A DNA stretch of 64,000 nt. It comes from Arenicellales bacterium (GTDB lineage: Bacteria > Pseudomonadota > Gammaproteobacteria > Arenicellales > JAJDZL01). A program made the translations under genes and the position numbers. Numbering within the stretch: position 1 is the first letter of the stretch; each line of letters starts with the position of its first letter. Positions 15,150-33,545 of this stretch are shown here, one piece after another. Where the stretch lies: NCBI GenBank assembly GCA_963664525.1, contig OY761535.1, positions 1,295,314 through 1,359,313 on the forward strand, given 5' to 3'. The notes beneath the pieces are model-generated. The model saw only the letters and a program-made list of their open reading frames with translations. It was not told the origin of the DNA and did not search any database.

Positions 15150-15363
15150 GTCACTTTTACCCCCTTCGATGTATTGATGAATAAATTGTTTATGCGTGAC
15201 TAATTTACAGATTTTTGAATCAAATTTGGCAACATTTGACCGAAGAATTTTTTGTTATCAAAAATTTGCTGCCTACTGTCAAGTTTTATCTTCGATTGTT
15301 CCGTAAATTATTACTATCAAAATTGGGGTTGCTCAATCGCAGCGAGTGCGAAAGGAGGTTGAA

Positions 15364-16683: not shown

Positions 16684-16704
16684 CCCGGTTGACGGAGAAA
16701 AAGC

Positions 16705-17709
16705 ATGACAAAATTTGAACAATTACCGCATGAAGAACAATTGGTGCTACTCGAACGAGTTGCGAAAAATGCTGTCGCTCATTATGATTTTCCAACCGAT
16801 TCAACGGTCCAGTTAATCAACCTTTCAGAAAATGCAACCTACCGCGTGGATGATCACCTAGGCGGTAGAAAATGGGCTTTGCGCGTGCATCGAGAAGGTT
16901 ACCACTCCTATCACGCGATCAAGTCAGAACACGCCTGGACGGATGCCTTGCGTGAACAGGCCGGAGTCATCACTCCTGTCATCGTACCTGGCACAGATGG
17001 AGAGAACATTCAGTCTGTTGATGCTGAGGGTATGCCTGGCGGCCCAAGACATGTGGTTACTTTTGATTGGGAATCTGGCGTTGAACCGCCTGAAGACAAT
17101 CTGATCGCCCCGTTTGAACTGCTCGGCAGCGTTTCAGCGCAAATGCACCATCATTCCAAGAGTTGGCAGCGACCGCAATGGTTTGAACGCTACACCTGGG
17201 ATTTCGAAACGAGTATCGGCGACACACCTCACTGGGGCAGATGGCAAGATGGGATGGGCGTTGATGCTTCCCGTCAGCAGTTATTCGGACAAACAGCTGC
17301 TCTAATCAACGACCGACTGAATAGATACGGAAAGAATCCGGACCGCTGGGGGCTTGTCCATTGTGATATTCGTCTGGCAAACTTACTGATCGAAAACGAA
17401 GTCACCAAAGTCATCGACTTTGACGACTGTGGATTCAGTTGGTTTATGTATGACTGTGCGACGGCACTGAGTTTTATTGAAGCTCGCGAAGACGTGCCTG
17501 AATTGATCAAAGCATGGGTAAAAGGCTACCGTTCTGTGATGGAACTTTCTGAAGAGGACGAGGCAGAAATTCCAACTTTTGTCATGCTGCGCCGCTTGTT
17601 GCTGGTCGCCTGGATTGGCTCTCATTCAGAAACTGAACTTGCGCAATCAATGGGCCTGGACTTCACAAAAGAAACGGTAGAACTTTGCGAGCGTTACCTT
17701 TCGAAATGA
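16705..17709 (+). CDS. APH/choline-kinase-fold small-molecule kinase
   Basis: 334 aa with Brenner motif HCDIRLANLL and IDFDDCG. Lies 21 nt downstream of the aminotransferase-fold gene. Confidence 0.8.
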   Translation: MTKFEQLPHEEQLVLLERVAKNAVAHYDFPTDSTVQLINLSENATYRVDDHLGGRKWALRVHREGYHSYHAIKSEHAWTDALREQAGVITPVIVPGTDGENIQSVDAEGMPGGPRHVVTFDWESGVEPPEDNLIAPFELLGSVSAQMHHHSKSWQRPQWFERYTWDFETSIGDTPHWGRWQDGMGVDASRQQLFGQTAALINDRLNRYGKNPDRWGLVHCDIRLANLLIENEVTKVIDFDDCGFSWFMYDCATALSFIEAREDVPELIKAWVKGYRSVMELSEEDEAEIPTFVMLRRLLLVAWIGSHSETELAQSMGLDFTKETVELCERYLSK

Positions 17710-18090
17710 GTTATCGCTAAAAGTGGTGCTACCGGACCAGGTAGACCAGGTCTGTGCCACAGATTCAACTGGGGCATAAGCAGTACTCAACCAGATTAAT
17801 AGTAAAAGTATTTTTCTGCGCATGATATTTTGTAAAACAATCGATTCGAAAGAAAGCCTGATGACGCTATTCGGCTGACTCTTACTTAAACCACCTGAGC
17901 GGTTTGTTAATACAGTGTTCGGACATTGATAATCACTTGGTGAAGCGGGGTTCACAACAGTACGTTTCAGGCAGGCAATGCCCAAGAGTGTTCCAAAAAC
18001 TGGATGCCATTGCGCAACAAATGGCCTACTCCTGATGGAACGAAGAATCGATGCGAATCAGTAATCTGGAGAGTCAGAAATTCCAGTTAT

Positions 18091-19401
18091 TCAAAGGACT
18101 TGCGGTGGTTCCACCGGCAGTGAGCGCAGAAAGTCTCCGAAAGAAGGAATCGGAATCTTGTAGTGATCCAGCATTCCTCGCGCCGGGGCCAGCAATCCAG
18201 CATGCAATGCATTGGTTAAAAACTCGTCAATACTTTCCTCTTTCCTCTTTCGCGCAGTTTCCGTCAGCAGGTCGACCTCATCATACGACAAGGTATCAAC
18301 AAACTCTCCTTCCTTTTTACCTGCCGCCAAGGCTAACCGCTTATACACCCAAGCCCGGTTGGAACCGGCTTCAATTCGTCCCACATAGTAGTCGTTTTTC
18401 CGTTCGGTGCCCTTATCCAGCGCCTGTGCGAGCAGAAGTCTTTCCAATCGACCTTCATTTGTACGTGCTACCCGACCTGCTGCTACACCGATTCGGTTGA
18501 TATGTTGTGGCCACCCCTGAGACAGCTCCGCCAGGGCATTCACCCAGAGTACCTTTTCTTCCTCTGTGCCAGTATAGTAAGTATCTAGCAAGCACCGAAA
18601 GGAACCTGACGCATCGTCCATCGAAAGAGGTTCCAGGTTCACCAACCGCTCATCCGCAAATCGCGACAAACCACACTCACGCAACACCTGCTGGGTGTCG
18701 CTCAAACCGAAAAAGGCTGTCACCAAAGAAATGTTCGAGGGCGGGTTGTGCAGACAGCCTATCACACCTTGAGTGGTGCCCGCTACCGGAGTGTTCTGGG
18801 CTTCATCCACAAATACCACTAGGTGAAACTTTTCAAGCAATGGTGCGCAGTCAGTGAACACCGACTGTGATAGCAGGTTCGAATCCAGGACATTTATAGC
18901 CTCCGGTTTGCCACCCACCGAAATACCCGCTGCTGCAACTCCTCGTTCCGATAATTCCTGACAAAGCTTTCGTCCAAGTTTCAAATACTCTTCCAGCTTT
19001 CCGGCGATTGTGCTTGGCGCTGTCTTTGCAAGTCGTTCACTTTCCGTATTGGCCGCTTGCACGATTATTCTAATGGTCTGTACGGCAGAAATCAGGGTTT
19101 CAGGCCAAATGGAGACAGCGACCCAGGGATCGTCCGGTGTCGAATGACGTTTGACCGCCTCCATACACTCCAGCATCAGCGCAGACTTTCCGGCACCCGG
19201 CGCTCCCTGGAAAATCATTGTGCCGCCACCTACATACCCTGAACGTAGGCTATCTGCCGCATTGCGAAAGACCTCGTACTCGGCATCTCGACCGCAAAAA
19301 AATGGCTCGCGACCCACTTCGGAACGATCGGTTCGCTTCAGCCACGCCTCCTCTGGTGGAGGTTCGGCTGGCGGCGGCTTGGGAAACGGTCTTTGATTCA
19401 T
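18091..19401 (-). CDS. orphan P-loop NTPase (AAA_16/ORC-Cdc6-like ATP-binding protein)
   Basis: 436 aa with a Pro-rich N-terminus, Walker A FQGAPGAGKSAL and Walker B VVFVDEAQN. Monocistronic, next to IS debris. Confidence 0.7.
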   Translation of the reverse strand: MNQRPFPKPPPAEPPPEEAWLKRTDRSEVGREPFFCGRDAEYEVFRNAADSLRSGYVGGGTMIFQGAPGAGKSALMLECMEAVKRHSTPDDPWVAVSIWPETLISAVQTIRIIVQAANTESERLAKTAPSTIAGKLEEYLKLGRKLCQELSERGVAAAGISVGGKPEAINVLDSNLLSQSVFTDCAPLLEKFHLVVFVDEAQNTPVAGTTQGVIGCLHNPPSNISLVTAFFGLSDTQQVLRECGLSRFADERLVNLEPLSMDDASGSFRCLLDTYYTGTEEEKVLWVNALAELSQGWPQHINRIGVAAGRVARTNEGRLERLLLAQALDKGTERKNDYYVGRIEAGSNRAWVYKRLALAAGKKEGEFVDTLSYDEVDLLTETARKRKEESIDEFLTNALHAGLLAPARGMLDHYKIPIPSFGDFLRSLPVEPPQVL

Positions 19402-19623
19402 GTAGATAAATTTAGTCCAAATAATGTTACCAGTCTTCTGCTACCTTTACGCCGATTCCTAAAGTCCCCTGATCTTAATCAATATTGCGCATATGGACAG
19501 CCTATCTGATTGCTATTATATTTTTGGCTATTGCATATTCTTTCCTAATTACCATGAATTATGAGCATGTTTAGTGGCATAATATATCCAATACAAGTGA
19601 TTGATAAATAAAGGTTATATACT

Positions 19624-20231
19624 ATGAAACGAAACCCTGTTCGGTTCCAGGAAAGCCAAGGCCTCAAGGCGTTCCTGGAGCATTACGGTGACGAAGACAA
19701 ATGCTTCGAATCACTGTTCAAATAGCGCTGGCCAAACGGCTTTATCTGCCCCAACTGCAGACACCACAAAAGCTGCCACCTCAACACCCGCAAACTGCGT
19801 CAGTGCTACCGCTGCCATCGCCAGATCTCGCTCGTCGCCGGCACGATCTTTGAATCGAGCAAACTGCCTTTGACCATCTGGTTTCAAGCCATTTACCTTT
19901 TGACCCAGACCAAAAAGGGCATCTCCGCCATGCAGTTGCACCGGCAACTGGGCATTTCCTACAACGCCCGCCTGGCGCATGAAGCGCAAACTGATGCAAG
20001 GTGATGCGAACGCGCAGCAGTGGAAAAACGAAGTTTTATTGGGTCAATACGGTGCTGAGCAATCTCAAGACAGCCTTGCGCAGCAGCGATCACTCCTTTA
20101 ATGCGAAATATGCCCCGCGCGACCTGTCCGAATTCGAGTATCGCTTCAATCGGCGGTACCGCTTGCCGGATTTGATTCCAAAACTGGCTTACGTCGCTTT
20201 GACAACGCCGCCTATGTCTGAAAACTCTTGA
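19624..20231 (+). pseudogene. IS1595-family transposase pseudogene (in-frame stop, frameshift, internal deletion)
   Basis: The N-terminal zinc-ribbon part MKRNPVRFQESQGLKAFLEHYGDEDKCFESLFK*RWPNGFICPNCRHHK..QCYRCHRQ has a TAG after K33. The frame is lost at ..GISYNA. A C-terminal piece (..EFEYRFNRRYRLPDLIPKL) resumes at about 20001 with the DDE core missing. Confidence 0.75.
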
Positions 20232-20385
20232 AACATGGCTTACGATAAATGGTAATAAAGAAATAATTTTCAATGACACTGTTGGCAGTAGGCATTCGTT
20301 CAGTTAACCTTGGTTTAGAAATCATAATCTCGACGATCTCTTAGGCCATCAAACTTGTTGCTTATTTGCTGTAAGATTAGGCTAC

Positions 20386-20682
20386 TTAGTCAAAATCAAT
20401 TCTCTTCAACGCGCTCGTGTCTATCGTCTGTCTCACTTTATACAAGTCGAAACCTTCTTGTAGCGCTAGCCAGCTTTCAGCTGAACTGCCAAGTACTTTA
20501 GAAAGGCGAACCGCCAATTCCGGCGAAATTCCGGACTTGCCGTTCAATAATCGGTTGAATGTACTTCGAGCCACTCCCAACTGATTTGCTACTCCATTCG
20601 AGGTAATTCCCTCAAAAGGTTCGATATACGTACGTAGAATCAATTCTCCAGGATGAGGAGGGTTATTTTGTCGATAACTCAT
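20386..20682 (-). CDS. higA: HigA-type antitoxin (XRE HTH), orphaned
   Basis: 98 aa. Contains HPGELILRTYIEP...GVANQLGVARSTFNRLLNGKSGISPELAVRLSKVLG. Confidence 0.8.
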   Translation of the reverse strand: MSYRQNNPPHPGELILRTYIEPFEGITSNGVANQLGVARSTFNRLLNGKSGISPELAVRLSKVLGSSAESWLALQEGFDLYKVRQTIDTSALKRIDFD

Positions 20683-20754
20683 CAGTGATAGTCCTTATAG
20701 TTCACAGAGTGGGCATCACAACCATCAAACGTAATGAGTAAGTATTCACTTGCC
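20682..20754 (-). pseudogene. 3' fragment of a HigB toxin gene (last ~24 codons only)
   Basis: My minus-strand translation gives KASEYLLITFDGCDAHSVNYKDYH*, with the TGA overlapping the downstream higA ATG (TGATG). Compare the intact HigB C-terminus RICFRFRDGDAFDVEIVDYHK. The frame is closed by a TAG just upstream, at the stop of the neighbouring higA. Confidence 0.55.
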
Positions 20755-21048
20755 TTAAGCCACTATACGCGGACGAATTGCATTTAGAGCATCAACCTCC
20801 TTTGATTTTGCAATCTCAAGTTCATAAAGAGACTGAAGATTGATCCAACTCCTTGCATCGGTATTGAAATATCGCGCTAAACGCAGTGCTGTACTCGCTG
20901 TGATTCCTCGACGACCGAGGACAATATCGTTGATTCGCGTTGGTGTTACTCCAAGCGCATTGGCCAATGCTGTGGCTGAAAGACCAAAAGGTTCCATGAA
21001 CTCGTACTTCAAAATCTCGCCAGGATGAACAGGTTGTAGTTTATTCAT
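20755..21048 (-). CDS. higA: HigA-type antitoxin (XRE HTH)
   Basis: 97 aa. Contains HPGEILKYEFMEPFGLSATALANALGVTPTRINDIVLGRRGITASTALRLARYF. Confidence 0.85.
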   Translation of the reverse strand: MNKLQPVHPGEILKYEFMEPFGLSATALANALGVTPTRINDIVLGRRGITASTALRLARYFNTDARSWINLQSLYELEIAKSKEVDALNAIRPRIVA

Positions 21049-21159
21049 ATTGTCCCTCCATTTTTTTAAGGAACTTGAATATTAAGTCATTGATATAGTT
21101 GTATTAGAAAATATTTATTCTTTGATATAGGCGTTGCCACCATCAATAGCACTGGGGAC

Positions 21160-21441
21160 TTATTTGTGATAATCTACTATTTCCACGTCAAAGGCATCTC
21201 CGTCACGAAAACGAAAACAAATCCTCCATTGATCATTTATCCGAATGCTGTATGAACCCGATCGTTTACCACGTAAAACCTCTAATCGGTTTCCGGGTGG
21301 AATTCGCAAGAATTCAATCGATGTAGCGGCATTCAATAGTGCGAGCTTCCGCTGAGCGACTCGCTCGAAGTTTCGAAAACGCCGTACCCGAATCTGGTTA
21401 GCGAGTCTCTCGGTATCCTTACTACGATAACTCCGAATCAT
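21160..21441 (-). CDS. higB: HigB toxin (RelE/ParE superfamily, 'killer protein')
   Basis: 93 aa. MIRSYRSKDTERL...LRIPPGNRLEVLRGKRSGSYSIRINDQWRICFRFRDGDAFDVEIVDYHK. Confidence 0.85.
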   Translation of the reverse strand: MIRSYRSKDTERLANQIRVRRFRNFERVAQRKLALLNAATSIEFLRIPPGNRLEVLRGKRSGSYSIRINDQWRICFRFRDGDAFDVEIVDYHK

Positions 21442-21450
21442 ATGAAAATT

Positions 21451-21483
21451 ATATCGTATATCGATATTCGATATTCGATATAA
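21451..21483. promoter_or_regulatory. candidate higBA operator (ATATCGATAT-type repeats)
   Basis: ATATCGTATATCGATATTCGATATTCGATATAA lies directly upstream of the higB ATG and contains overlapping palindromic TCGATAT units. Confidence 0.35.
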
Positions 21484-21585
21484 TAATTTGATGCATTTAA
21501 TTTTGTGTATGCTGGTCTACTAAATGGAGAGGAGCGAATACCAAATTGCGTTCCGGGCAGGCGTTGCGAAAAGCGCAAACTAGTG

Positions 21586-21830
21586 TTATGTCTCATTAAT
21601 TCGTTTACAGTAGGTCTTCAACGAATCCAAAATGTCGTCGGCACTTTTTGTCCACACAAAAGGCTTTGGATCCTCATTGTAGATCTCCATATACTGTTTG
21701 ATCGCACTATCCAAATCCCTTGTGTTGTGTCATACGACCCGCGCCGAATTTGTTACCGGGTGATCTCAGCAAACCACCACTCAACCAGATTTAACCAGGA
21801 CGAACTAGCCCGAATATTGCACCAAAAATA
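21586..21830 (-). mobile_element. IS630-family transposase C-terminal remnant (stop plus frameshift)
   Basis: My minus-strand translation gives ..SSSWLNLVEWWFAEITR*QIRRGS.. and then, in another frame, ..RDLDSAIKQYMEIYNEDPKPFVWTKSADDILDSLKTYCKRINET*. This matches the conserved IS630 tail (SWLNxVExWF...NxxPKPFxWT). The 108-aa plus-strand track ORF here is its antisense shadow. Confidence 0.65.
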
Positions 21831-22056
21831 GAAAATGGGTTTAAATTTGGTAAATTGGGTTTAATCCCCCCATTTGCTGAATTAGAATCATCATTCGATG
21901 ATCCAGAAGGACTATAGTCCAACTATTACGGAACTGCCTATCCAGGTTGACTGTTACTATTTCGTGAAGTTACCTGGAAGGTCGACTTTAAATGCGACAG
22001 GAATCCTGATAAACTATTTGAGCACAATTAACCGTCATGAATTTAGAAGGTTTTCA

Positions 22057-22521
22057 ATGTTCCGTATCGATCAAATCAAAAGCGCTGTAATCGTTGTTTT
22101 TTGCCTGCTGACTTTAGTTGCAACACCTTTATATGCTGCAGAAAATCCTGTGTTCACCGGAGGTGGGGAATTTGCCATAAAAGGATATGACAGCGTCGCC
22201 TACCATCTAGAAATGAAGCCGGTCAAGGGGCAAAGCGAATTCACTACTGAATGGAACGGTGCAGTCTGGCGATTCAAAACGGCCGAAAATCGTGACCTGT
22301 TTCAATCAGACCCGGAACGATGGGCTCCAAAATACGGCGGTTACTGCGCTTGGGCAGTTTCAAATAATTACACCGCAAAAACCGACCCCGATGCCTGGTC
22401 AATCGTGGACGATAAACTCTACCTGAACTATAGCCGCAGTGTACGCAGAAAGTGGAGCAAAGACATACCAGGCAACATTGAGCGCGCAGATGCCAACTGG
22501 CCAGAGGTTCTGCAAAAGTAA
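22057..22521 (+). CDS. secreted YHS-domain family protein
   Basis: MFRIDQIKSAVIVVFCLLTLVATPLYA signal peptide, then AIKGYDSVAY...WRF...F..DPERWAPKYGGYCAW. AGAAGG lies 6 nt upstream of the ATG at 22057. The longer track ORF from 21898 is unlikely. Confidence 0.7.
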   Translation: MFRIDQIKSAVIVVFCLLTLVATPLYAAENPVFTGGGEFAIKGYDSVAYHLEMKPVKGQSEFTTEWNGAVWRFKTAENRDLFQSDPERWAPKYGGYCAWAVSNNYTAKTDPDAWSIVDDKLYLNYSRSVRRKWSKDIPGNIERADANWPEVLQK

Positions 22522-22584: not shown

Positions 22585-23214
22585 TTACCAGTCGCGACCT
22601 GAGGTACTCTCGATCATTTGTAAAACGTGATCGAGCGCTATTTGAGTATTTTGCTCAGTCCCGGCGATAAATACACGACCTGATACGCCGAACATTTGGC
22701 AATCTACCAGAACATTTTCTGCGACCGCAGATTCGGCTGCGTTCGCCGCAGCGGCGGCAAAAAGAGCCGGTGCGGTTTCCAGCAGCAGCATTGATTCACC
22801 TGGTAGGATCATTGACGCGTCTCTTTGCCGATTGATAATGACCGAATGCTGATCGCCAACATCAGTCACCAGGTCGGAGTAAAGTACTCTCGGTTTCAAT
22901 TGCGATGCGGCTTCCAATTTGAATCCAGACAATATCGCTTCACCTGCAGCATGCAAATCATCCAATTCAGGGCTGTGTAATTCCAGGATCCCAAACTGTC
23001 TTTCCACATACAAAATACCCGGCTCTATGGTTGGAACCGATTTCAGCGCAAGGTCAATGACGCGGTGAATCGCAAGTGCCGGTGCAATCTCAATAATCAG
23101 TGAGTGCATGCCTTGCAAGGGTACGTAACCGCGCGCTCGAAGTGCAGTCGCCATATAAGCTGCAAACTGCGTCTGCAAATTTTCAATTTGCAGATATACC
23201 CTTAATTCAACCAT
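22585..23214 (-). CDS. tandem BMC-domain shell protein (BMC-T-like)
   Basis: 209 aa, made of two halves with BMC-like patterns: LIIEIAPALAIHRVIDLALKS...ERQFGILELH..AAGEAIL and LLLETAPALFAAAAANAAESA...GVSGRVFIAGTEQNTQIAL. Paralogous to the 202-aa protein at 24435. Last gene of the BMC operon. Confidence 0.7.
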   Translation of the reverse strand: MVELRVYLQIENLQTQFAAYMATALRARGYVPLQGMHSLIIEIAPALAIHRVIDLALKSVPTIEPGILYVERQFGILELHSPELDDLHAAGEAILSGFKLEAASQLKPRVLYSDLVTDVGDQHSVIINRQRDASMILPGESMLLLETAPALFAAAAANAAESAVAENVLVDCQMFGVSGRVFIAGTEQNTQIALDHVLQMIESTSGRDW

Positions 23215-23298
23215 GAAAATCGATCCATCATTAGCGCGAATCGCCCTGGCAAACTATGATTTTGTTTGCCAGCAACGAATAGTCCAGGTAATGGTTGG

Positions 23299-23580
23299 CT
23301 ACTTGCCAGAAGCAACGTCAAATTTCTTGACAACGTCCGCATGTGGTCGCGGGATGACATGAACTGAAACCACTTCACCAACCGAGCCGGCCGCTTCTGC
23401 GCCTGCCTCTGTAGCGGCCTTTACCGCACCGACATCTCCGCGAACCAGTACAGAGACAAGCCCCGCACCTACCTGTTCTTTGGTGACGATTTCTACGTTC
23501 GCGGCTTTTACCATAGCATCGGCAGCAGTGAATGCTCCGACGTAGCCACGAGTTTCAATAAATCCAATTGCGTTTGACAT
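23299..23580 (-). CDS. BMC-H hexameric shell protein (PduA/CcmK-like)
   Basis: 93 aa with the canonical sequence [29 protein letters not shown]...[27 protein letters not shown]...VHVIPRPH. Confidence 0.9.
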
Positions 23581-23621
23581 GACTATTCTCCAGTTACAAA
23601 CAATTGTTTTAAAAATTAACC

Positions 23622-23888
23622 CTAGTTTTTGCTGTTCGTATTTTCATCGACGATACCGATCACCAATGCGTCAACTACAGCGTTTCCTGACTTGAACCAA
23701 CCTTTGGCAACCGAACCTTGAGAAACAATGACTTGCTCCCCAGCGCCTGCGCCCAGTGGGTCGTAAGCCAAAATTCGTTCGGCGACTTTCCCGTCTTCGA
23801 TCAAATCGATTTCCAAAAGTGCGCCTCTTGGTAACTCATCCAGTCTGCGGGTCGCCCAAATTTTTCCAATTACAGTGCCTACTTTCAT
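23622..23888 (-). CDS. BMC-P pentameric vertex protein (EutN/CcmL family)
   Basis: 88 aa. [29 protein letters not shown]...[16 protein letters not shown]...[10 protein letters not shown]. Confidence 0.9.
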
Positions 23889-23890
23889 GG

Positions 23891-24430
23891 TTACTGCCTC
23901 ACTATTTCAATTTTCAACTGACGCGCCCGATCCTTTGCGAGTGGCGTCAGAATCACGCCTTTTGCGATTTCAATTCGCTGATGGGTTTTTGATAACGCCA
24001 GTACCTTAGATTCAACCAATACACCAGATTCAATGCGACCGTTGCATGGTGCAGTATCTGCTGACTTTTTTGAGTCAATCGTTATCGATTGACTTGTTTT
24101 TCTATCAGGTACTCGTTTTGAGTTTGCCGAGCCCGGCTGCGTCAAGGCTTTGAATTTCAGCCGGCCTGCCCCAATGAGCCCAGCGACGTGCTGGTCCTTG
24201 AGACACTTGGTAAGGTCTTGGACAAATTCGTTCACTTTCTTGTCAGAACTTAAATCTACCGCTACTGCAGTTTTGCCGTTTGACTGCGCTGACTCTAATA
24301 GTTGTTTCATCAATCTGCAGTTTGTTGGTGGCGCAGTATTGACTTGGCTTTGCGGACTAGGCAGCGCCTCAAGCAGCGCTTCACGAACCGCTCGACGAAT
24401 CTCTTCTCTTGAATAGGCCAGTTCACTCAC
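23891..24430 (-). CDS. BMC-operon protein of unknown function with an N-terminal amphipathic (encapsulation-peptide-like) helix
   Basis: I place the start at the GTG at 24430, 4 nt after the upstream stop, with GAGGA about 9 nt upstream. The N-terminus is SELAYSREEIRRAVREALLEAL followed by a Pro/Ser/Gln linker. The C-terminus is GVILTPLAKDRARQLKIEIVRQ. The stop lies 2 nt before the BMC-P ATG. Confidence 0.6.
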   Translation of the reverse strand: MSELAYSREEIRRAVREALLEALPSPQSQVNTAPPTNCRLMKQLLESAQSNGKTAVAVDLSSDKKVNEFVQDLTKCLKDQHVAGLIGAGRLKFKALTQPGSANSKRVPDRKTSQSITIDSKKSADTAPCNGRIESGVLVESKVLALSKTHQRIEIAKGVILTPLAKDRARQLKIEIVRQ

Positions 24431-24434
24431 CGCT

Positions 24435-25043
24435 TTACATCCTCGCTTCCAGCGCCTCTTCTGCAGCTCGAGCGGCCGAGCGTACATCGCTTTCAGGACC
24501 GCTAAGATAAACGCGCCCTGTCGCCCCAATCATCCGGTAATCCACGACCTTGATGTCGGCTGCTTTTTCAGCTTCATTAACAGCCAAAATGCTGTAAGAT
24601 GCCGGCTGCATTTCAAACACGAACAGCGATTCACCTGGCAAAACCATAGATCCTAATTTGTTGCGATTAATGAGAAACGCATGGTAATCATCGACTCGTT
24701 TGACAATCGTGGATGCCAGAATTTCAGGAGCAAGCGCATCAGATGGACTCGCATTCAACGTTTCCATCACCGCTTCACCCCCTGCAACCACATCTGCAGT
24801 GTGCTCCGAATGAAACTCAAGATAGCCAAACTGGCGCTCAACAACGAGAATCCCTGGCTTGACATTGACATTCTTCAATGCGATGTCGGTGATTCTTTCA
24901 ATGTGAAGACCTGGCACGACTTCAATGACCATAGCCGCCATATTCGATTTGGGTAAGTAGCCGCGAATCCAACTGCCCAAATAACACATCGTTTTGGGCT
25001 GAAGTTGGTCAATAAAGATGTAGGAACGAATTTCAGCCATCAC
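24435..25043 (-). CDS. tandem BMC-domain shell protein (BMC-T-like)
   Basis: 202 aa. VIEVVPGLHIERITDIALKNVNVKPGILVVERQFGYLEFHS..VVAGGEAVM, then a second half FVFEMQPASYSILAVNEAEKAADIKVV..GATGRVYLSGPESDVRSAARAA. The ATG overlaps the AldDH stop (TGATG). Confidence 0.7.
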   Translation of the reverse strand: MMAEIRSYIFIDQLQPKTMCYLGSWIRGYLPKSNMAAMVIEVVPGLHIERITDIALKNVNVKPGILVVERQFGYLEFHSEHTADVVAGGEAVMETLNASPSDALAPEILASTIVKRVDDYHAFLINRNKLGSMVLPGESLFVFEMQPASYSILAVNEAEKAADIKVVDYRMIGATGRVYLSGPESDVRSAARAAEEALEARM

Positions 25044-26605
25044 AAACGCGTTCGTCTAACGAGTTGAAGCGAGCGAATTTCTTCGAGAATAATCTGGTGA
25101 ATTTCAGCCCTTAAATCACCGCTCGACCATGCACCTGTAACTGATCCCGAATGACTGGTTTCAAAGCCATCCGCGAAAGAATAATCGATCTTTTGATCGC
25201 GCGGCCGCGGCTGAGAAGCATTTTGCAATTCCAAGTTCTCAAATTGATCTGTGTCGATCATCGCTTCTTTGTTGTAAGCGATTTTTGACCACTGCACCAA
25301 GTGCTGTGGACCGACATTGTCACCCACCGAACTTCTACCAAAAAATCCTGTGCCAACCGTCATGGTTGGTGCAAGATTGGTATTAAACCCCGATGCACCA
25401 GTGCTACACGGAGCGTTGACCGGAGTTCGCAATACGCTTAACTCAGATCCAAAACGCAACACCATTTGGGGATCCTGGCAGTGTATCGCAGCAGAGTGCC
25501 CACTACCCATTCGCCGCGTCATCGCATTACAAGCCTTCATTGCAGCGTCGCGGCTCGCAACGACATAGAATCCGAGTACAGGACAAAGTTTTTCCCGACT
25601 TAATACGTAATCATCACCGATACGTTCAAGGTCGACAACGAGTACCCGGGTATTTTGAGGGACCCGAATTCTGGCACGTTCAGCGATCCACTCAGCTGGC
25701 TGACCAATGACCGATGGGTCGAATGCGCCTTCTGGATATAGCAGTTCAGTTATACGATCCCGTTCTTCATCACTACAGTGATAACAACCCTCTTTTTTCA
25801 GCGCAACAATTAAATCGCTGCTGATTGCCTTATGTGCGACCACCGCCGATTCATTGGTGCAAAGAATGCTGTTATCAAACGACTTACTATCGGCAATGCA
25901 TTTTGCGGCATGTTCAACGTCAGCAGTTTTATCAACATAGGCTGGACAGTTGCCAGGACCGACGCCCAGTGCAGGGTTACCAGAACTGTAAGCAGCCCTG
26001 ACCATAGGTGAACCGCCTGTTGCGAGAATCACATCGATACCATCGGAACGCATGACGCCTTCAATCACCTCTAACGTGGGATTCTCGATTACCTGAATAA
26101 TGCCATCCGGCGCACCCGCATCTTCTGCAGCCTGTGCGATTTTAGCGACCGCATCCGAACAGCATTCTTTCGCCGAGGGATGTGGACTGATGACAATTGC
26201 ATTTCGCGTCATTAATGCGAGTAGTGCTTTGAAAAATACCGAGCAGACTGGGTTGGTGGACGGTGTCAGTGCAAAGACGACACCAGCAGGCCGTGGAATT
26301 TCAATGACTTTGCGTTCGTGATCGATGCGGTGGCGGGTGAAATCATGATCCTTATAGTATTCATAAATACCCTCGCTGCACATCCGGTTCTTGATCTCTT
26401 TGTGGTCTGCATTACCAAACCCCGTTTCAGCAACGGCCCAGTCAGCATACTGGCGTGCAGTTTCATTACCAATGTCTGCGACCGCTTTGGTAATACGAAG
26501 CACATCATCGCGCCGGTAGCCGGCATACACGCTGCCGGCCCAACGTGCCCGGTTGACAACTCTCATCGCCTGAAAAATCGGCGTTGGCTGTGAATGTATC
26601 GGCAT
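25040..26605 (-). CDS. CoA-acylating aldehyde dehydrogenase (EutE/PduP-type) with a C-terminal extension
   Basis: AldDH core with catalytic Cys in FDNSILCTNESAVV, plus ALTPSTNP and ATGGSPMVRAAYSSG. The C-terminal tail is a low-complexity linker followed by DLRAEIHQIILEEIRSLQLV. The start is uncertain: 26605 (MPIHSQ), 26662 or 26566. Confidence 0.85.
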   Translation of the reverse strand: MPIHSQPTPIFQAMRVVNRARWAGSVYAGYRRDDVLRITKAVADIGNETARQYADWAVAETGFGNADHKEIKNRMCSEGIYEYYKDHDFTRHRIDHERKVIEIPRPAGVVFALTPSTNPVCSVFFKALLALMTRNAIVISPHPSAKECCSDAVAKIAQAAEDAGAPDGIIQVIENPTLEVIEGVMRSDGIDVILATGGSPMVRAAYSSGNPALGVGPGNCPAYVDKTADVEHAAKCIADSKSFDNSILCTNESAVVAHKAISSDLIVALKKEGCYHCSDEERDRITELLYPEGAFDPSVIGQPAEWIAERARIRVPQNTRVLVVDLERIGDDYVLSREKLCPVLGFYVVASRDAAMKACNAMTRRMGSGHSAAIHCQDPQMVLRFGSELSVLRTPVNAPCSTGASGFNTNLAPTMTVGTGFFGRSSVGDNVGPQHLVQWSKIAYNKEAMIDTDQFENLELQNASQPRPRDQKIDYSFADGFETSHSGSVTGAWSSGDLRAEIHQIILEEIRSLQLVRRTRL

Positions 26606-26833
26606 CCTTACAAATTGAATGAACAGAATTTCGTCTTGTAGCGAAAATTCTATGTCACGCAAAATGTTTTAGTCTTGACAGTTCAAACCAATTAGTTGAC
26701 TTCAGAGCGCGTGAATCATGCCAGTCTGTGTTGGCCAACGCATGACGGTCGAAAACAAAAGACCGGCACCACCGATCAATATCCTAACCGATACAGCGTT
26801 TGTCTGCTGCGTCGACAGCCACGCAGTTTGTTC

Positions 26834-29800
26834 TTATGAGGACATTGACTCCGAACTTCGGCCTAGTAAATGCACTTCGCTGATCGCAACAGTCAATGTA
26901 GCAAAATCGATTTTGCTGATTGACTTCATATCCTTGATGATGCTGGCCAACATTCGACAGCTAACCCGATTGGATTCCATCCAAACATCAACAGCATGTT
27001 GTGGGCTGTCTGTCGAGGCATGTTGAACAACGTCGCTTGCAATGGCTGACTGATGGGTGTGAATATCGTCGCTCAATCTTGATTTGGCGAGTCCGTGCCA
27101 TCGGTTTTCAACCGGTAGATTAGCAACCTGCTGGCGAATCCAAACCAATTCCAGTCTGGCACCGATATCGAAATATACCTGTGAGACAAATTCAGCGGTT
27201 TTTTCTGATTGCTTGATGATTTCAACGATGTCCAGGGCTGTTGATAGCGGTATGCATTCAACAACTTGCCGGGCAAGTTTTTGCGGCACCTTGTTATCGA
27301 CCAAATCGTCGATGTAGTGTTTGATTTGACTGGTATATTCTCTGCTGAGCGATTTCGAAAGCCCGCTGGAAAGTTTTTGAACATCGCCTTTGAAATAATC
27401 GACCACCTCGGCAATATTGAGTGGATGGTTCCGATGACGAAGCAGCCAAAGTGTGGTCCGTTCCAGTAATCCTTCAGCCAATTTCAGCATTTTCAACTGA
27501 CTGGAGGCTGGCACCTTGTTATCCATGTTTTCAACTGCCGACCAGATATCTTGCATGTCAAAAATATCTCTAGCGGCACAGTACGATCTTGCGATATCAG
27601 CATAAGCAGCACCCGACAAACCACGCATTCGGTAGGCAAATGTTGGACCGACCCGATTAATCATGTTGTTCGTCACGAAGGTCGCAACGATCTCCCTTTT
27701 TAATCGATGTTCATACATCTCTTTACTGAATTGCTTTGACAGACGGTCAGGGAAGTACTCAGACAGGTCTCTGTCCAGGTAATCATCCTCAGGCATATTC
27801 GAATCGAGCAATGCATCGTACAAAGTCATCTTCGAATAAGCAAGCAACACGGAAAGCTCCGGCAGTTTGAGTCCAATGCCGATCGATTCGCGCCTTTTGA
27901 TTTCTTCCCAATCCGGTAAAAATTCAATTTCCCGATCGAGCTGGTCCGATCTTTCCAGTGCCTGAATATACTGACTGTGTTCATTGAGCAACTCAGGTGA
28001 ATGAACATTGAGGGAACTGAGTGCCTGGCTTTGTTGGTAGTTGTTTTCCAATACCAGTTCAGCGACCTCTTCTGTCATTTCCCTGAGGATCTTTTCGCGC
28101 TGCTTAACGGTCATTTCACCGTGATTAACAACTTGGTTGAGCAATATCTTGATATTCACTTCGTGGTCTGAACAATCCACACCACCTGAATTGTCAATCG
28201 AGTCGGTATAACAGCGACCGCCATGCATGCAATACTCGACGCGACCGAGTTGAGTCATACCAAGATTTCCACCTTCACCGACGACCTTGGCACCAAGTTC
28301 CGAACCATCAACTCGAATCGCATCGTTGGAACGATTTTCTGTATCAGCATGCGATTGTGTCGAGGCTTTAACGTAAGTACCAATTCCGCCATTCCACATT
28401 AAATCAACCGGCGCCTTGAGCATGGCATGCATCAATTCGTTGGGTGTAAGCTTGGACTGTGTTATGTTCAATCGTTTTTGCACGGCCGGTGAAATATCGA
28501 TCGCCTTAGCAGTGCGATCGAATACCCCACCGCCTTCGGAAATCAACTTTTTGTCATAGTCTTTCCAACTCAGCCCTGGTGAATTAAAGAGCCTTTCCCG
28601 TTCCTGGTAGCTAATCTCGGCATCGGGGTTGGGGTCTAAAAATATTTCGATGTGATTAAAGGCACCAACCAATTGGATGTGCCGGGACAGCAGCATGCCA
28701 TTTCCGAAAACATCTCCGCCCATGTCACCGATGCCAATGGCTGTAAAATCCGTCGTCTGAATATCAACACCCAGTTCGCGAAAGTGCCGTTTCACCGACT
28801 CCCAGGCACCCCGGGCTGTAATACCCATCGCTTTGTGGTCATATCCAACTGAACCACCGGAAGCAAACGCATCTCCCATCCAAAAGCCATACTCTTCAGA
28901 AATTTTGTTGGCAATATCCGAAAAAGTCGCAGTCCCCTTGTCCGCTGCGACAACAAGATAGGGGTCATCATCATCGTAACGCTTTACATTTGCAGGATGG
29001 ACAATTTTGTCATCGACAATGTTGTCCGTGATGTCGAGCATACCGCGGATAAAGGTTGAATAACAAAATATCGCCTCATCCAACATGCTTGTGCCCGGTG
29101 CCGGTGGCTGTTTAATCACGAATCCACCTTTTGAGCCGACCGGTACGATGACTGCATTTTTGACCATCTGCGCTTTCACCAGGCCCAGCACCTCGGTCCT
29201 GAAGTCTTCTCGCCGATCTGACCACCTCAATCCACCACGCGCAACTTTACCGCCGCGCAGGTGTACCGCCTCAGTGCGCGGTGAATATACGAATATTTCA
29301 TATTTTGGTCGTGGGTCCGGCATCCGAATGATTCGCATGCAATCAATTTTGAAAGAAATGTAGTCATGTGGATGACCCGATGAATCTATACAAAAATAGT
29401 TGGTGCGTATCGTCGAAGTCATCGCATTTTTATAGCTTCGAAGTATCACGTCTTCATCCAGACTGGACACCGCATCAAGATGCGCATCCATCACTTTCCT
29501 GATTCGATTGACTTCCTGGTCGGACGAACCCGCAGTCGGATCAAATTTGACCTCGAAATATCGGATCAAGCTGGCAGTCATGTCGATATTTCGAATCAGT
29601 GTGTCGGTTACATAGGCACTGCTGAAAGTGTGACCAATTTGTTTCAAATACTTGCTGTAAGCGCGCAAAACCGAAACCTGTCTCCAGGTTAAATTCGCCA
29701 TCAATACGAGGCGGTTAAACACATCGTTCTCCGCAGCACCGCGCCAGATATTAATAAAGGCCTGCTCAAAACTTTGGCGCTGCTGGTCAGCGTCATATTC

Positions 29801-31651
29801 CTGGGAATGTATCAGTGAGTAATCATGAACCCAGATAGAGCCGTCATTTGGCAATGAGATCTCGTACGGTCGTTCCTCCTTCACACGTAATCCCATGTTT
29901 TCCAGGACTGGCAATACATCTGACGGCGACACCTGGTTTTGAAAGCTGAACAATTTCAAACGCACCTGTTTTTGGTCAGTTTCCTGAAGTGGCCGGAAAA
30001 ATGAAACGATAAGATCATTGTCGGCATTCAATGCGCTTAGTCTTTCGAGATCCGCAGCAACAACCCAAGGTGAATAGTCTTCCTGGTAACTCGCCCCGAA
30101 CGCATTCTCAAAGGTGCGACAATACTGCGCACCGACATCTTCCCCATAACGTTCAACAGCAGCCTGGCGAAGTGCATCTTGCCAGGTTGTTGCCGCATCC
30201 TGCACTTGACGCTGAATGTCTTCCAGGCTAAGTTCGGGTTGACTGTCAGTATCAACGTAGATTGTGTACTCGATACGGGCGAGTACCGAACCGGAAAAGG
30301 TTGCAAAAAATTCAGATGACTTCCCCTTGAGCGATTTCATCAAGATGCTTTCGATCTTGACGCGTAGTGGTCGACCAAACAGTTCATGCGGAATGTAAAC
30401 CAGTGCTGAGTAGAACCGGTCGAACTGTTCTCGGCGCAAAAAGAGTTTCACGCGGTTGCGTTCCTGCAACTCCAGTGTGCCAGCTACGTCTTCAAACAAT
30501 TCGTCTGAATTGGCTCGAAACAACATGTCGCGAGGATAATTGTCAACAATATTGGTCAACACGCGAATACTGTGTGTTGTTTCTGAAAATCGACTGCGCT
30601 GCAGCACCCTTTTGATCTTGGTTCGAAGCAACGGAATGAGACTTGCGCTTCCGTTATAGGCAGTCGAACTAAAAAGCCCAACGACAGCTCGCAAACCTGA
30701 ACAAGCACCCGCAGCGGTGTATTTCGGAATAAGAATGAAGTCGAGGTATGACGAGCGGTGTATGGGCGAGTGAATATTTGCTTTTGATACGATCAACGAC
30801 TGACAATCGGTTTTAGTATCGATGGTTAACGCACTGATCGGTAATATTTTGCCAAGATCTTCATATTCTCGCAAAATTCCAAGTTTGGATTTGTCATTCT
30901 GAATTAACGTCCCATTTTTCTTCAGTTGTAATTCACAGTACCCGAGCAGAGTAAAATTTCCAGTGGCCAACCAGCTGCAAAACTCTGCATAATCTTCCAT
31001 GAATTCGTTTTTGGAACGATCCATCTCCTTTTCCAGATTCTTCGCTGCAGCCTTGATCTGTCGGCGCATCGGCCGCCAATCTTCAACTGCAATATCAAGT
31101 GTCTTTAAGGCTTCCCTGAGGCAGGCTTCGACAGTCTCAAACTCGGTTGTTTCAAATCGCCTTTCAAATTCAAAATGTATGAATGATTCAAATACACCGT
31201 CTAGAAAATCTGCATTCAAAGGTGCCGCGATCTTCCGCAGCCGCCCGGACTCATCGCGCTGAACTGCGAGTACAGGATGAACAGTCAAGTGCACCTTACA
31301 TCCTAAATTGTTCAATACCATTGACATGGTGTCGACCAGGAACGGCCGGTCGGGGATGACCATTTCCAGAACTGCGAATTTCGATCGCCAGCCATCGCGC
31401 TCGACATCGGGGTAATAAAGCCTGATCTTGGTTTCATCAGCTTGCCTTACCCTGCACAGTTCCCAGTGCGCCAGCGCTGCTCCGCGCAAATCGAAGACAT
31501 CCCTTTGACTTAATTCTTCGTAGGGAACGCCATAGTAGTAGGCTCGGACAAACTGCTCAAATTCGTCGTCATCTGTGTGCAGTAGACTTCCCTGGTCGCC
31601 GACAATCCGGTTTATCAGGGTTTCAGTTTGATGTGAATGAAGAATAGACAC
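26834..31651 (-). CDS. large NAD-specific glutamate dehydrogenase (~180 kDa Bac_GDH type)
   Basis: 1,605-aa uninterrupted ORF. The architecture and motifs are typical of this family (..VPVGSKGGFV.., ..LVVAADKGTATFSD.., ..GGDMGGDVFGNGML..). Confidence 0.9.
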   Translation of the reverse strand: MSILHSHQTETLINRIVGDQGSLLHTDDDEFEQFVRAYYYGVPYEELSQRDVFDLRGAALAHWELCRVRQADETKIRLYYPDVERDGWRSKFAVLEMVIPDRPFLVDTMSMVLNNLGCKVHLTVHPVLAVQRDESGRLRKIAAPLNADFLDGVFESFIHFEFERRFETTEFETVEACLREALKTLDIAVEDWRPMRRQIKAAAKNLEKEMDRSKNEFMEDYAEFCSWLATGNFTLLGYCELQLKKNGTLIQNDKSKLGILREYEDLGKILPISALTIDTKTDCQSLIVSKANIHSPIHRSSYLDFILIPKYTAAGACSGLRAVVGLFSSTAYNGSASLIPLLRTKIKRVLQRSRFSETTHSIRVLTNIVDNYPRDMLFRANSDELFEDVAGTLELQERNRVKLFLRREQFDRFYSALVYIPHELFGRPLRVKIESILMKSLKGKSSEFFATFSGSVLARIEYTIYVDTDSQPELSLEDIQRQVQDAATTWQDALRQAAVERYGEDVGAQYCRTFENAFGASYQEDYSPWVVAADLERLSALNADNDLIVSFFRPLQETDQKQVRLKLFSFQNQVSPSDVLPVLENMGLRVKEERPYEISLPNDGSIWVHDYSLIHSQEYDADQQRQSFEQAFINIWRGAAENDVFNRLVLMANLTWRQVSVLRAYSKYLKQIGHTFSSAYVTDTLIRNIDMTASLIRYFEVKFDPTAGSSDQEVNRIRKVMDAHLDAVSSLDEDVILRSYKNAMTSTIRTNYFCIDSSGHPHDYISFKIDCMRIIRMPDPRPKYEIFVYSPRTEAVHLRGGKVARGGLRWSDRREDFRTEVLGLVKAQMVKNAVIVPVGSKGGFVIKQPPAPGTSMLDEAIFCYSTFIRGMLDITDNIVDDKIVHPANVKRYDDDDPYLVVAADKGTATFSDIANKISEEYGFWMGDAFASGGSVGYDHKAMGITARGAWESVKRHFRELGVDIQTTDFTAIGIGDMGGDVFGNGMLLSRHIQLVGAFNHIEIFLDPNPDAEISYQERERLFNSPGLSWKDYDKKLISEGGGVFDRTAKAIDISPAVQKRLNITQSKLTPNELMHAMLKAPVDLMWNGGIGTYVKASTQSHADTENRSNDAIRVDGSELGAKVVGEGGNLGMTQLGRVEYCMHGGRCYTDSIDNSGGVDCSDHEVNIKILLNQVVNHGEMTVKQREKILREMTEEVAELVLENNYQQSQALSSLNVHSPELLNEHSQYIQALERSDQLDREIEFLPDWEEIKRRESIGIGLKLPELSVLLAYSKMTLYDALLDSNMPEDDYLDRDLSEYFPDRLSKQFSKEMYEHRLKREIVATFVTNNMINRVGPTFAYRMRGLSGAAYADIARSYCAARDIFDMQDIWSAVENMDNKVPASSQLKMLKLAEGLLERTTLWLLRHRNHPLNIAEVVDYFKGDVQKLSSGLSKSLSREYTSQIKHYIDDLVDNKVPQKLARQVVECIPLSTALDIVEIIKQSEKTAEFVSQVYFDIGARLELVWIRQQVANLPVENRWHGLAKSRLSDDIHTHQSAIASDVVQHASTDSPQHAVDVWMESNRVSCRMLASIIKDMKSISKIDFATLTVAISEVHLLGRSSESMSS

Positions 31652-31791: not shown

Positions 31792-33227
31792 TTATCGCCT
31801 ATGCTTAATCCGCACAACTAAATTATCAGGGTACATCGTGAATGATAAGCGCTCTTGAACAGGTTCCTTTACACTGAGCAGTTCGACTTCAAAGTTCTTC
31901 AGAAACATGGCCAATACGACCCGCATTTGCAAAAATGCGAGGCTGCGACCAGGACAGAACCGAGGACCACCACCAAATGGCATAAACGCACGTGGATCAT
32001 GCGTCATCAAATCTGTTCCTGATTCTCTGAGCCATCGATCAGGTCTAAATTCACCTGCGTCGCTGAAATTTTCCTCTCGAGTCGCAACGCGCCTTGTAAG
32101 CAATATCAATTGCGTTCTTTTGGGTATCGACACTCCCAGGATGTCTTGTGTTTGCTTGGTTTCCATGACCATGATTGGCGCAACAGGCTTCAGGCGCATG
32201 ACCTCGTCTCGAAATGCATCAAGAAAAGGAAGCTTTTCTGTCTGTGAGATGTTTCGCAACATTGAATCTTCTGCAATCAATCGGTCTACTTCATCTCTTG
32301 CCTGTGTAAAGTGTACTGGATACGTGGAAAAAAGTGTATCGTCCAAGCCATCGTATTGGCAGTCGTATCCTCCCCAGCAAGTAAAATTGTCCCGATATTT
32401 GCAAATATTTCGGCATCGGTAAATCCCGAATCTTCGTCTTCGATGGCAAGCAATAGTGCTTCGAGAAAGTTTTCCGGTGACTTTCTAAGTTCAGGATTGG
32501 ATTGCAATCGCTCTCGCGTCGCTTCAATAATAGTGTCTGCTTCCCGCCTGATCTGCACTAGCGACTGATCGAGGCTTCTGTCTGATGGTAGTTTGAAGTA
32601 TCGCCAGTATGCAAAAGGTAAATTTGCACGCTGATGTACTTTCGGGAATATTTTGTCGAGATGCTGTTGAATGACTGGGCCCGAAGCCTCAACTGTGTTG
32701 GCATCAAAACCAAAAGCAATTTGCATGGTTACATCAACCGTAAATCGATAGAGATCTTCACATAGATTGACTGGTTCTCCGGTATCTGCTGCTCGGTCCC
32801 AGCGACGTTTTAATCGATCGACGGTGCTTACAAGTTGAGGAAAGAAATTGGCAAGTTTGGCTCGACCCAACGCAGCTACAACCAGTTTTCTCTGCCTGCG
32901 CCAGGATTGTCCTTCTGCAGTAAAGACGCCATTAAGCTGCAATTCGTTTGCGACTCCCTCCAGACGGCTGTCGCGACGATATAGACCGGGGCGGTCAACT
33001 AGAATCTGCTGCACAGCGTGTTTGTCCGAGATGACAGCAATCGAAGATGAGCCAAACTTGATTTTGTAAATCGAGCCATATTGATTGGCCCAATTTTCAA
33101 GATCAAGATGCAGGGTTTTGAAATCAACCTGCATATAGTTGCCGACGAAGGGAAAGCCGCGCGGACCAGCAAGTTCCGCAAACGATTTCACTTGCTTTTC
33201 GCGCAAACCTGACGGATTATCATTCAA
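31792..33227 (-). pseudogene. cytochrome P450 interrupted by a -1 frameshift in a homopolymer
   Basis: The N-terminal ORF (313 aa) ends just after the I-helix AGEDTTANTMAWTIHFF. The C-terminal ORF (184 aa) carries EVMRLKP (ExxR) and the haem loop FGGGPRFCPGRSLA. The frames join as ..IHFFSTYPVHF.. if the A6 run at 32328-32333 (T-run on the coding strand) were 7 nt long. Confidence 0.8.
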
Positions 33228-33462: not shown

Positions 33463-33545
33463 TTATCACCGCATAATGTGCGACAATTATTTTTAATTTT
33501 GCGGTGATTAAACCTTACATTCACCTTGTTTTGTGCGGTGATTAA
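33463..33545. promoter_or_regulatory. repeated TGCGGTGAT(T)AA boxes upstream of the Fic gene
   Basis: TTATCACCGCA sits at 33463-33473 in inverted orientation. TGCGGTGATTAA occurs at 33500-33511 and again at 33534-33545, the latter abutting the start codon. Confidence 0.3.

Follow-up and report, generated by a model that had tools for sequence, protein, structure and literature searches.

The 64,000 nucleotides of Arenicellales contig OY761535.1 analysed here (positions 1,295,314 to 1,359,313 of the forward strand; "the window" below means this whole stretch, numbered from its first letter) contain six co-directional minus-strand genes between 22585 and 26605. They encode a CoA-acylating aldehyde dehydrogenase (AldDH), shell proteins of a bacterial microcompartment (BMC) and one hypothetical protein. 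Together with a kinase, a pyridoxal-phosphate (PLP) enzyme and a short-chain dehydrogenase (SDR) encoded several kilobases away, they are most readily understood as a microcompartment locus of the RMM/AAUM type (aminoacetone/1-amino-2-propanol utilisation). All six open reading frames (ORFs) are present in the ORF listing of the window:

22585 to 23214, minus strand: tandem permuted shell protein BMC-T(dp), MSM0271-like ("rmmT2"), 209 aa; PDB 5suh, E = 5.5e-74
23299 to 23580, minus strand: BMC-H hexamer (facet) protein, MSM0272-like, 93 aa; PF00936, E = 2.8e-27
23622 to 23888, minus strand: BMC-P pentamer (vertex) protein, MSM0273-like, 88 aa; PF03319 (EutN/CcmL), E = 1.3e-20
23891 to 24430, minus strand: conserved RMM-specific hypothetical protein, 179-180 aa; family alignment and hhalign comparison with pRHL2
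24435 to 25040, minus strand: tandem permuted shell protein BMC-T(dp), MSM0275-like ("rmmT1"), 201 aa; PDB 5l39, E = 4e-85
25040 to 26605, minus strand: CoA-acylating AldDH (type I, EutE/AdhE-N-like); PF00171, E = 7.3e-22

By sequence comparison, the family and structure matches of this six-gene block have E-values far beyond chance. The closest natural relatives of solved structure are, for all four shell proteins, the RMM shell proteins MSM0271, MSM0272, MSM0273 and MSM0275 of Mycobacterium smegmatis. The best natural PDB match of BMC-H is 5l38 (MSM0272, E = 5.1e-34), and BMC-P has 5l37 (MSM0273) at the top with E = 1e-19 and a runner-up of only 1.9e-8. In phmmer searches of the PDB, the rmmT1-like protein aligns over its full length with 5l39 (MSM0275), as does the 209-aa protein with 5suh (MSM0271); next in the PDB follow, for both tandem proteins, CcmP, CsoS1D and the BMC-T of Haliangium (HO). 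The 201-aa protein also belongs to the CcmP-like NCBIfam family (E = 1.9e-65). Pfam is less informative: PF00936 covers only the C-terminal domain of the 201-aa protein (6e-7), and the 209-aa protein has no match in the Pfam copy searched. PF27545 (CsoS1D_N) is recorded for homologues of the tandem proteins, and in the homologue from a sister Arenicellales locus (L001) it covers the N-terminal domain; this newer family accounts for the failure of PF00936 to match the N-terminal domain of the tandem proteins. The missing Pfam match of the 209-aa protein was considered as evidence against a BMC fold and rejected, the full-length PDB match being decisive. Since both tandem proteins match solved structures over their full length, they are assigned to the double-stacking tandem BMC-T(dp) class. 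The predicted shell thus consists of one BMC-H for the facets, one BMC-P for the vertices and two different double-stacking BMC-T(dp) trimers.

A preliminary description of this DNA, made from the letters alone, had recognised a metabolosome-type operon with an acylating AldDH, BMC-H, BMC-P, two tandem BMC-T proteins (the second of 209 aa) and one protein of unknown function, and had likened its gene order to that of the mycobacterial RMM block. Pfam and PDB matches bear this out. The family models that it proposed as a check (PF00936, PF03319 and PF00171) matched BMC-H, BMC-P and AldDH, and the tandem proteins were settled only by the full-length PDB search. Its gene boundaries stand in part. 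The ATG of the rmmT1-like BMC-T does overlap the AldDH stop (TGATG); given this overlap, the protein starts at ATG 25040 and has 201 aa, like its homologues, so that its tandem BMC identity holds and the length of 202 aa does not. The hypothetical gene exists, with a GTG start at 24430 that gives 179-180 aa where 180 had been stated, and its stop does lie 2 nt before the start of BMC-P. The AldDH was correctly described as CoA-acylating with its catalytic Cys in ILCTNE, a residue that aligns with the Cys of the homologous ICASE of 3k9d; matches to acylating AldDH and AdhE structures (3k9d, 5j78, AdhE) reach about 1e-95. Its start is most likely ATG 26605 or 26566, and not the earlier TTG 26662. 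As the best NCBIfam families are AdhE and TIGR02518 (E = 7.8e-126), the enzyme is classified as type I.

Three further genes complete the set of RMM components in the window:

14370 to 15149, minus strand: SDR; PF00106/PF13561; PDB 6ci8/6ci9, E = 2.6e-93
15346 to 16683, plus strand: PLP enzyme of the class-III aminotransferase family, the RMM signature enzyme (MSMEG_0277 homologue); PF00202, E = 1e-72
16705 to 17709, plus strand: APH-family kinase; PF01636; PDB 6ef6, E = 7.6e-94

We take 6ef6 to be the (S)-1-amino-2-propanol kinase of the M. smegmatis RMM/AAUM locus, and 6ci8 and 6ci9 presumably represent the 1-amino-2-propanol/aminoacetone dehydrogenase of the same locus; the window kinase and SDR are their predicted orthologues. 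The class-III enzyme shares 62-76% identity with its proteobacterial RMM counterparts and 59-65% with the product of the gene that immediately precedes AldDH in actinobacterial RMM loci. In the window its gene is 6-7 kb away from the shell genes, which it adjoins in sister genomes. Measured against their homologues, none of the nine pathway and shell ORFs is broken or shortened. Homology and synteny together identify the shell parts, the acylating AldDH, the kinase, the dehydrogenase and the PLP enzyme of class-III fold, and the kinase and class-III genes as a convergent unit, with the divergent SDR gene, would supply the rest of the pathway. The same Pfam families are listed as RMM components (msmeg_0269, msmeg_0277 and APH) in the table of a published BMC catalogue (Sutter et al. 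2021, PMC8217296). Of the three enzyme kinds that the operon had been said to lack, phosphotransacylase (PTAC) and alcohol dehydrogenase were indeed not found among the large ORFs of the window, whereas candidates for the aldehyde-generating step are present at 14370-17709.

Relatives of the 201-aa BMC-T were sought in species-representative genomes, at least 559 of which encode one, and the window proteins were mapped onto 80 related loci, 27 from Arenicellales and 53 from other lineages. The 27 best matches (83-96% identity) all come from Arenicellales or unclassified gammaproteobacterial metagenome-assembled genomes (MAGs); they are followed by Alphaproteobacteria and then by Solirubrobacterales, Gaiellales, other Actinomycetota and one Spirochaetaceae MAG. 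The order AldDH, BMC-T, (hypothetical), BMC-P, BMC-H, BMC-T is kept in every one of the 73 loci that span the block and is identical, with the hypothetical gene, in Rhodococcus jostii RHA1 pRHL2. The resemblance to the mycobacterial RMM block that had been suggested from gene order is thus confirmed by sequence matches, by pRHL2 and by these 73 loci. As a separate observation, positions 9001-14490 of pRHL2 hold an exact tandem duplication of the BMC-T, hypothetical, BMC-P and BMC-H genes with identical protein accessions, and an aminotransferase gene lies between the copies.

The flanks of the block differ between lineages. Actinomycetota have the aminotransferase, AldDH, BMC-T, hypothetical, BMC-P, BMC-H, BMC-T, kinase and SDR genes in this order on a single strand. 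In Arenicellales, a glutamate dehydrogenase (GDH) gene precedes AldDH, BMC-T, hypothetical, BMC-P, BMC-H and BMC-T on one strand; past the shell genes follow, on the opposite strand, (a YHS-domain gene), the kinase and the aminotransferase, and then the SDR, LplA, uracil-DNA glycosylase (UDG) and thioredoxin (Trx) genes. The window has exactly the Arenicellales arrangement. Several Alphaproteobacteria likewise have the convergent kinase and aminotransferase genes, and this order is common to the window and seven alphaproteobacterial loci. Kinase, aminotransferase and SDR occur near the last shell gene in 13 of the 27 Arenicellales loci, with the same continuation into SDR, LplA, UDG and Trx, and the kinase is syntenic with the shell genes in most of the other loci as well. 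The class-III gene keeps its synteny with AldDH and the shell genes across phyla, and the adjacency of AldDH and shell genes is conserved in related loci. Median identities place every component closer to proteobacterial than to actinobacterial versions (AldDH 60% vs 46.5%, BMC-P 65.5% vs 48%, kinase 60% vs 50%).

In the window, 4876 bp separate the kinase from the last shell gene, compared with 201-5758 bp in the 13 Arenicellales loci. This spacer is occupied largely by mobile-element debris:

17710 to 21897, no strand assigned: strain-specific insertion of about 4.2 kb that splits the locus, delimited by Pfam, ORFs and composition
18091 to 19401: AAA_16 ATPase gene
about 19688 to 20231: frame-shifted transposase remnants of the IS1595 family, spread over three frames
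20386 to 20682: orphan helix-turn-helix antitoxin-like gene
20755 to 21441: HigA/HigB pair

The GC content dips across the insertion (0.425 in 20-22 kb). Because the two halves neighbour each other in sister genomes, what looks like an operon without signature enzyme is one half of a bipartite locus, whose halves have been pushed apart in the window by this strain-specific insertion. The site 17710-21897 appears to be an insertion hotspot, with an AAA_21 ATPase, a DDE_Tnp_1 transposase and DUF3604 at the same place in L001.

Such debris raises the question of whether the locus is a decaying remnant, in which insertion-sequence and toxin-antitoxin material has uncoupled the enzyme half from the shell half and production of the organelle has ceased. 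The 4.2 kb with transposase fragments between the halves would agree with this, as would the frame-shifted P450 gene in the neighbourhood. All nine pathway and shell ORFs are nevertheless intact and full-length, the spacer varies widely in length among relatives that all have intact genes, and the halves form convergent or divergent units also where the insertion is absent, so that no operon is interrupted by it. We therefore regard decay as very improbable.

Among catalogued BMC types, RMM loci build their shell from a single BMC-H and a single BMC-P together with two different BMC-T(dp) (Sutter et al. 2021, PMC8217296, Supplementary Data 2). This set is present in the window with an adjoining acylating AldDH of PF00171, the class-III enzyme, the APH kinase, the SDR and the hypothetical gene between BMC-T and BMC-P. 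The catalogue reports RMM1/AAUM1 (140 loci) from "various Actinobacteria and Proteobacteria" (Supplementary Data 2) and RMM2/AAUM2 from "a variety of Proteobacteria and Ca. Marinimicrobia" (PMC8217296). Its RMM members and tree entries include Acidiferrobacter, Verminephrobacter, Rhodobacterales, Vibrio and the gammaproteobacterial MAG TMED61, the last with a 209-aa rmmT2. Its RMM2 profiles are Tdp_cinnamon_aRMM2 and Tdp_sepia_bRMM2. Axen et al. 2014 had the RMM type confined to Actinobacteria, and Ravcheev et al. 2019 reported the cluster in Proteobacteria too. The view of the preliminary description, which knew of no record of the type outside Actinobacteria, is therefore contradicted by Sutter et al. 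2021 (RMM1 and RMM2) and Ravcheev et al. 2019, and the locus falls cleanly inside one of the catalogued proteobacterial types, an outcome that the description itself had named as refuting its reading.

RMM2/AAUM2 of Proteobacteria has the same components as the window (BMC-H, BMC-P, two BMC-T(dp), AldDH, class-III aminotransferase, APH kinase and SDR). Its T-proteins measure 203 aa (rmmT1) and 209 aa (rmmT2) in the catalogue (PMC8217296) and 201 and 209 aa in the window, and both orders differ from that of RMM1. The Arenicellales loci add neighbours specific to their lineage, a giant NAD-dependent GDH upstream and a YHS protein downstream, and the window locus is in addition split by the mobile-element insertion. 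RMM1/AAUM1 of M. smegmatis (MSMEG_0269-0277) and R. jostii pRHL2 shares the identical block from AldDH to the last BMC-T and a homologous hypothetical protein. Its aminotransferase gene, however, immediately precedes AldDH, and the kinase and SDR genes come after the last shell gene in the same direction. In the window, by contrast, the kinase and aminotransferase genes have a convergent orientation and the SDR gene a divergent one; a GntR regulator, a permease and hydrolases were not found there. Phylum, gene order and T-protein lengths make RMM2 the probable, rather than proven, subtype.

Other BMC types fit less well. Carboxysomes likewise use BMC-T(dp), and both tandem proteins have CcmP and CsoS1D as their nearest relatives after the RMM proteins (1e-34 to 1e-49), but the cargo in the window is an AldDH, and Pfam searches of the window ORFs of at least 150 aa found no RuBisCO, carbonic anhydrase, CsoS2 or CcmM/N. 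For PDU, EUT and GRM types, Pfam detected no diol dehydratase, ethanolamine ammonia-lyase, glycyl-radical enzyme, PTAC or alcohol dehydrogenase in the window. The earlier statement that RuBisCO, carbonic anhydrase, CsoS2/CcmM, PTAC and iron-containing alcohol dehydrogenase are missing thus holds among the large ORFs of the window. A metabolosome with incomplete core (MIC) has an AldDH and neither PTAC nor alcohol dehydrogenase, as in the window; MIC is, however, a holding category for loci without recognised type or signature enzyme, whereas the window has RMM signature enzymes and shell proteins of the RMM clade. We conclude, with a probability of roughly 0.85, that the locus is an RMM/AAUM-type microcompartment in Arenicellales with proteobacterial gene order, most likely RMM2/AAUM2.

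The pathway proposed for it draws for its mechanistic details on studies of the M. smegmatis enzymes. The SDR would interconvert aminoacetone and (S)-1-amino-2-propanol, which the kinase would turn into 1-amino-2-propanol O-phosphate. We propose that the class-III enzyme is an aminopropanol-O-phosphate phospho-lyase that acts inside the shell and releases propionaldehyde, along with phosphate and ammonia. The AldDH, targeted by a C-terminal helix, would trap the propionaldehyde as propionyl-CoA, and the pores of BMC-T(dp) might act as gates through which the phosphorylated substrate or cofactors pass.

The class-III enzyme might instead be a true aminotransferase in the same organelle, converting aminoacetone or aminopropanol to methylglyoxal or lactaldehyde, from which AldDH would form pyruvyl- or lactyl-CoA. 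Transamination pathways have been proposed (Axen 2014; Ravcheev 2019), and the best characterised sequence relatives of the enzyme are indeed aminotransferases (putrescine aminotransferases, 2.7e-51 in the PDB and 9.7e-69 in NCBIfam). Lyases do occur in the same fold family, with matches to the ammonia-lyase PbfA (3.3e-57) and to the human ethanolamine-phosphate phospho-lyase 6tor (1.3e-29), and transamination leaves the conserved aminopropanol-kinase orthologue without a role. Later work on the M. smegmatis kinase is said to favour the phospho-lyase route. Taken together, this makes the aminotransferase variant improbable, though less so than decay.

Targeting of the AldDH, as assumed in the RMM/AAUM scheme, may be mediated by its C-terminal extension of about 70 residues, in which a variable low-complexity linker is followed by the conserved helix DLRAEIHQIILEEIRSL. 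Its pattern, (D/E)LRxEI(H/R)xIILEE(I/L)R, recurs in almost every one of the 78 related loci with an AldDH match and is kept from Arenicellales to Actinomycetota; the few exceptions are mis-extracted or frame-shifted tails. Type I AldDHs (IPR013357) are described as carrying a C-terminal encapsulation peptide (EP) (Sutter et al. 2021, PMC8217296). An EP is an amphipathic helix of about 15-20 aa at one end of a cargo protein, attached through a flexible linker. Conservation and position suggest that DLRAEIHQIILEEIRSL is a putative encapsulation peptide.

The hypothetical protein encoded between BMC-T and BMC-P has 31 relatives, all from the same kind of locus. Alignment and an AlphaFold2 (AF2) model divide it into an N-terminal helix EEIRRAVREALLEAL (residues 8-22), a small alpha/beta domain (residues 39-95), a disordered variable linker (residues 98-129) and, in the AF2 model, a 45-residue C-terminal domain that ends in VILTPLAKDRARQLKIEIVRQ and has a pLDDT of about 90. 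The whole model has a mean pLDDT of 71 and a pTM of 0.30, with confident sub-domains. Foldseek found no match in the PDB at E <= 0.001, a profile search of the PDB found no relative, and Pfam returned only noise for 22 members of the family. Each of the 22 aligned members has a weak match to the C-terminus of TIGR02536, whose members are hypothetical proteins encoded in ethanolamine-utilisation loci (best E 2.1e-6, far below the family cut-off). A hidden Markov model (HMM) of the family locates a corresponding ORF, in the place that the gene has in the window, in the loci of Alphaproteobacteria and in most of those of Actinobacteria, and hhalign relates the protein over its whole length to WP_011600239.1 of R. 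jostii pRHL2 (probability 98.1%, E = 7e-14). On account of these two results the protein is a conserved RMM component and not a lineage-specific addition. Its N-terminal helix is similar in pattern to the AldDH tail, and the protein probably helps to organise or tether cargo.

Several observations weigh against the RMM/AAUM assignment or parts of it. Kinase, PLP enzyme and SDR are encoded outside the six-gene operon, 4.9 kb away, in other transcription units and with mobile debris in between. They were not seen within a flank of 10 kb in 14 of the 27 Arenicellales loci, some of which lie on short contigs; in L001, which belongs to these 14, the kinase is 8.4 kb away. PTAC and alcohol dehydrogenase were not found among the window ORFs by Pfam, as in all RMM loci, so that no enzyme for cofactor recycling is evident. 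The GntR regulator and the amino-acid permease typical of actinobacterial RMM1 are likewise missing among the window ORFs. That the class-III enzyme acts as a phospho-lyase is a proposal for a protein whose best characterised relatives by sequence are the putrescine aminotransferases, and the hydrophobic moments of the AldDH tail and of the N-terminal helix of the hypothetical protein do not exceed those of shuffled sequences (p about 0.2-0.3).

The first two of these points could also be taken to indicate a metabolosome with an incomplete core, consisting of shell and AldDH only, without signature enzyme or assigned substrate, and with an RMM-like shell newly found outside Actinobacteria; neither an aldehyde-generating enzyme nor PTAC or alcohol dehydrogenase is encoded inside 22585-26662. 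The RMM kinase, PLP enzyme and SDR are, however, located in the same window, in sister genomes they adjoin the shell genes (with a gap down to 201 bp), and the type is already catalogued in Proteobacteria. This explanation is accordingly given hardly any weight, and for the window it is already refuted.

Two genes adjoin the six-gene operon of the RMM/AAUM locus:

21898 to 22521, plus strand: YHS-domain protein, ORF of 207 aa, convergent on the shell operon; PF04945, E = 9e-6, below the cut-off
26834 to 31651, minus strand: large NAD-specific GDH, 1605 aa, directly upstream and co-directional; PF05088, E = 2.9e-259, with ACT/HM domains

The YHS gene occupies the same position in most full-length Arenicellales loci and occurs there in no other lineage; its protein is probably not part of the organelle. 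Homologues do not cover the first approximately 55 residues of the 207-aa ORF, for which reason the start is probably further downstream. Some Arenicellales loci hold two YHS copies between the last shell gene and the kinase. The giant NAD-GDH is found upstream of AldDH in 16 of the 27 Arenicellales loci vs none of the 53 others. Between GDH and AldDH lies a terminator-like hairpin (26777-26761), a weak hint only, since the promoter and terminator scan performed no better than on shuffled sequences. Further upstream, the cytochrome P450 gene (31792-33227, minus strand) is split into overlapping ORFs of 313 and 184 aa, with a single orthologue of 478 aa in L001; the junction lies at a T6 run (about 32328-32333) and reflects either a frameshift pseudogene or a homopolymer error of the assembly.

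The sulfur-oxidiser context mentioned in the preliminary description is real. SoxA and SoxY are encoded at 1.2-2.9 kb of the window and an HdrC/B/A-like cluster at 50.5-56.3 kb. Two radical-SAM genes and one lipoate-ligase gene occupy 41.3-44.5 kb, and 45-46 kb encodes a sulfur-transport protein. Two LplA-like lipoate-protein ligases are present, both on the minus strand. The one at 43406-44524 adjoins the two radical-SAM genes and the sHdr-like cluster, and the one at 13255-14268 immediately follows the microcompartment SDR gene, a placement that Arenicellales loci conserve. A type I polyketide/fatty-acid synthase of 2481 aa (KS-AT-DH-MT-ER-KR-ACP; 3900-11345, plus strand) separates the Sox genes from the genes for the microcompartment enzymes. 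A DUF4172-Fic protein (33545-34303, plus strand) and an AAA_15/AAA_21 ATPase of 581 aa with OLD/abortive-infection-like domains (57578-59323, minus strand) may be defence or toxin genes; they are unrelated to the microcompartment.

The window thus contains a real and intact RMM/AAUM locus; its kind is already on record for Proteobacteria, and its lineage had not been singled out before. Arenicellales are not named in the catalogue of Sutter et al. 2021, and the searchable literature yielded no paper linking them with microcompartments. For BMC biology in general the finding carries little weight, as the type, the shell structures, two of the enzymes and the presence in Proteobacteria are already published. 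It documents the organelle locus across at least 27 species-level Arenicellales genomes, and it illustrates that an apparent incomplete core without signature enzyme can arise as an artefact when a mobile element has inserted and only a limited span is read. Conserved as a three-part RMM component in lineages from Actinomycetota to Gammaproteobacteria, the product of the unannotated gene that separates BMC-T from BMC-P is a reasonable target for studies of cargo packaging. A more far-reaching and rather doubtful idea is that the Arenicellales locus, through its linkage with GDH and YHS, represents a distinct functional variant of AAUM in which the hypothetical protein is a dedicated cargo-organising scaffold, as the likeness of its N-terminal helix to the AldDH tail and the match of its C-terminal domain to TIGR02536 might suggest. 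If so, the GDH linkage could tie the ammonia released by the phospho-lyase to glutamate metabolism, and a Sox/sHdr mixotroph would harvest carbon and nitrogen from aminoacetone and aminopropanol derived from the breakdown of threonine or cobalamin.

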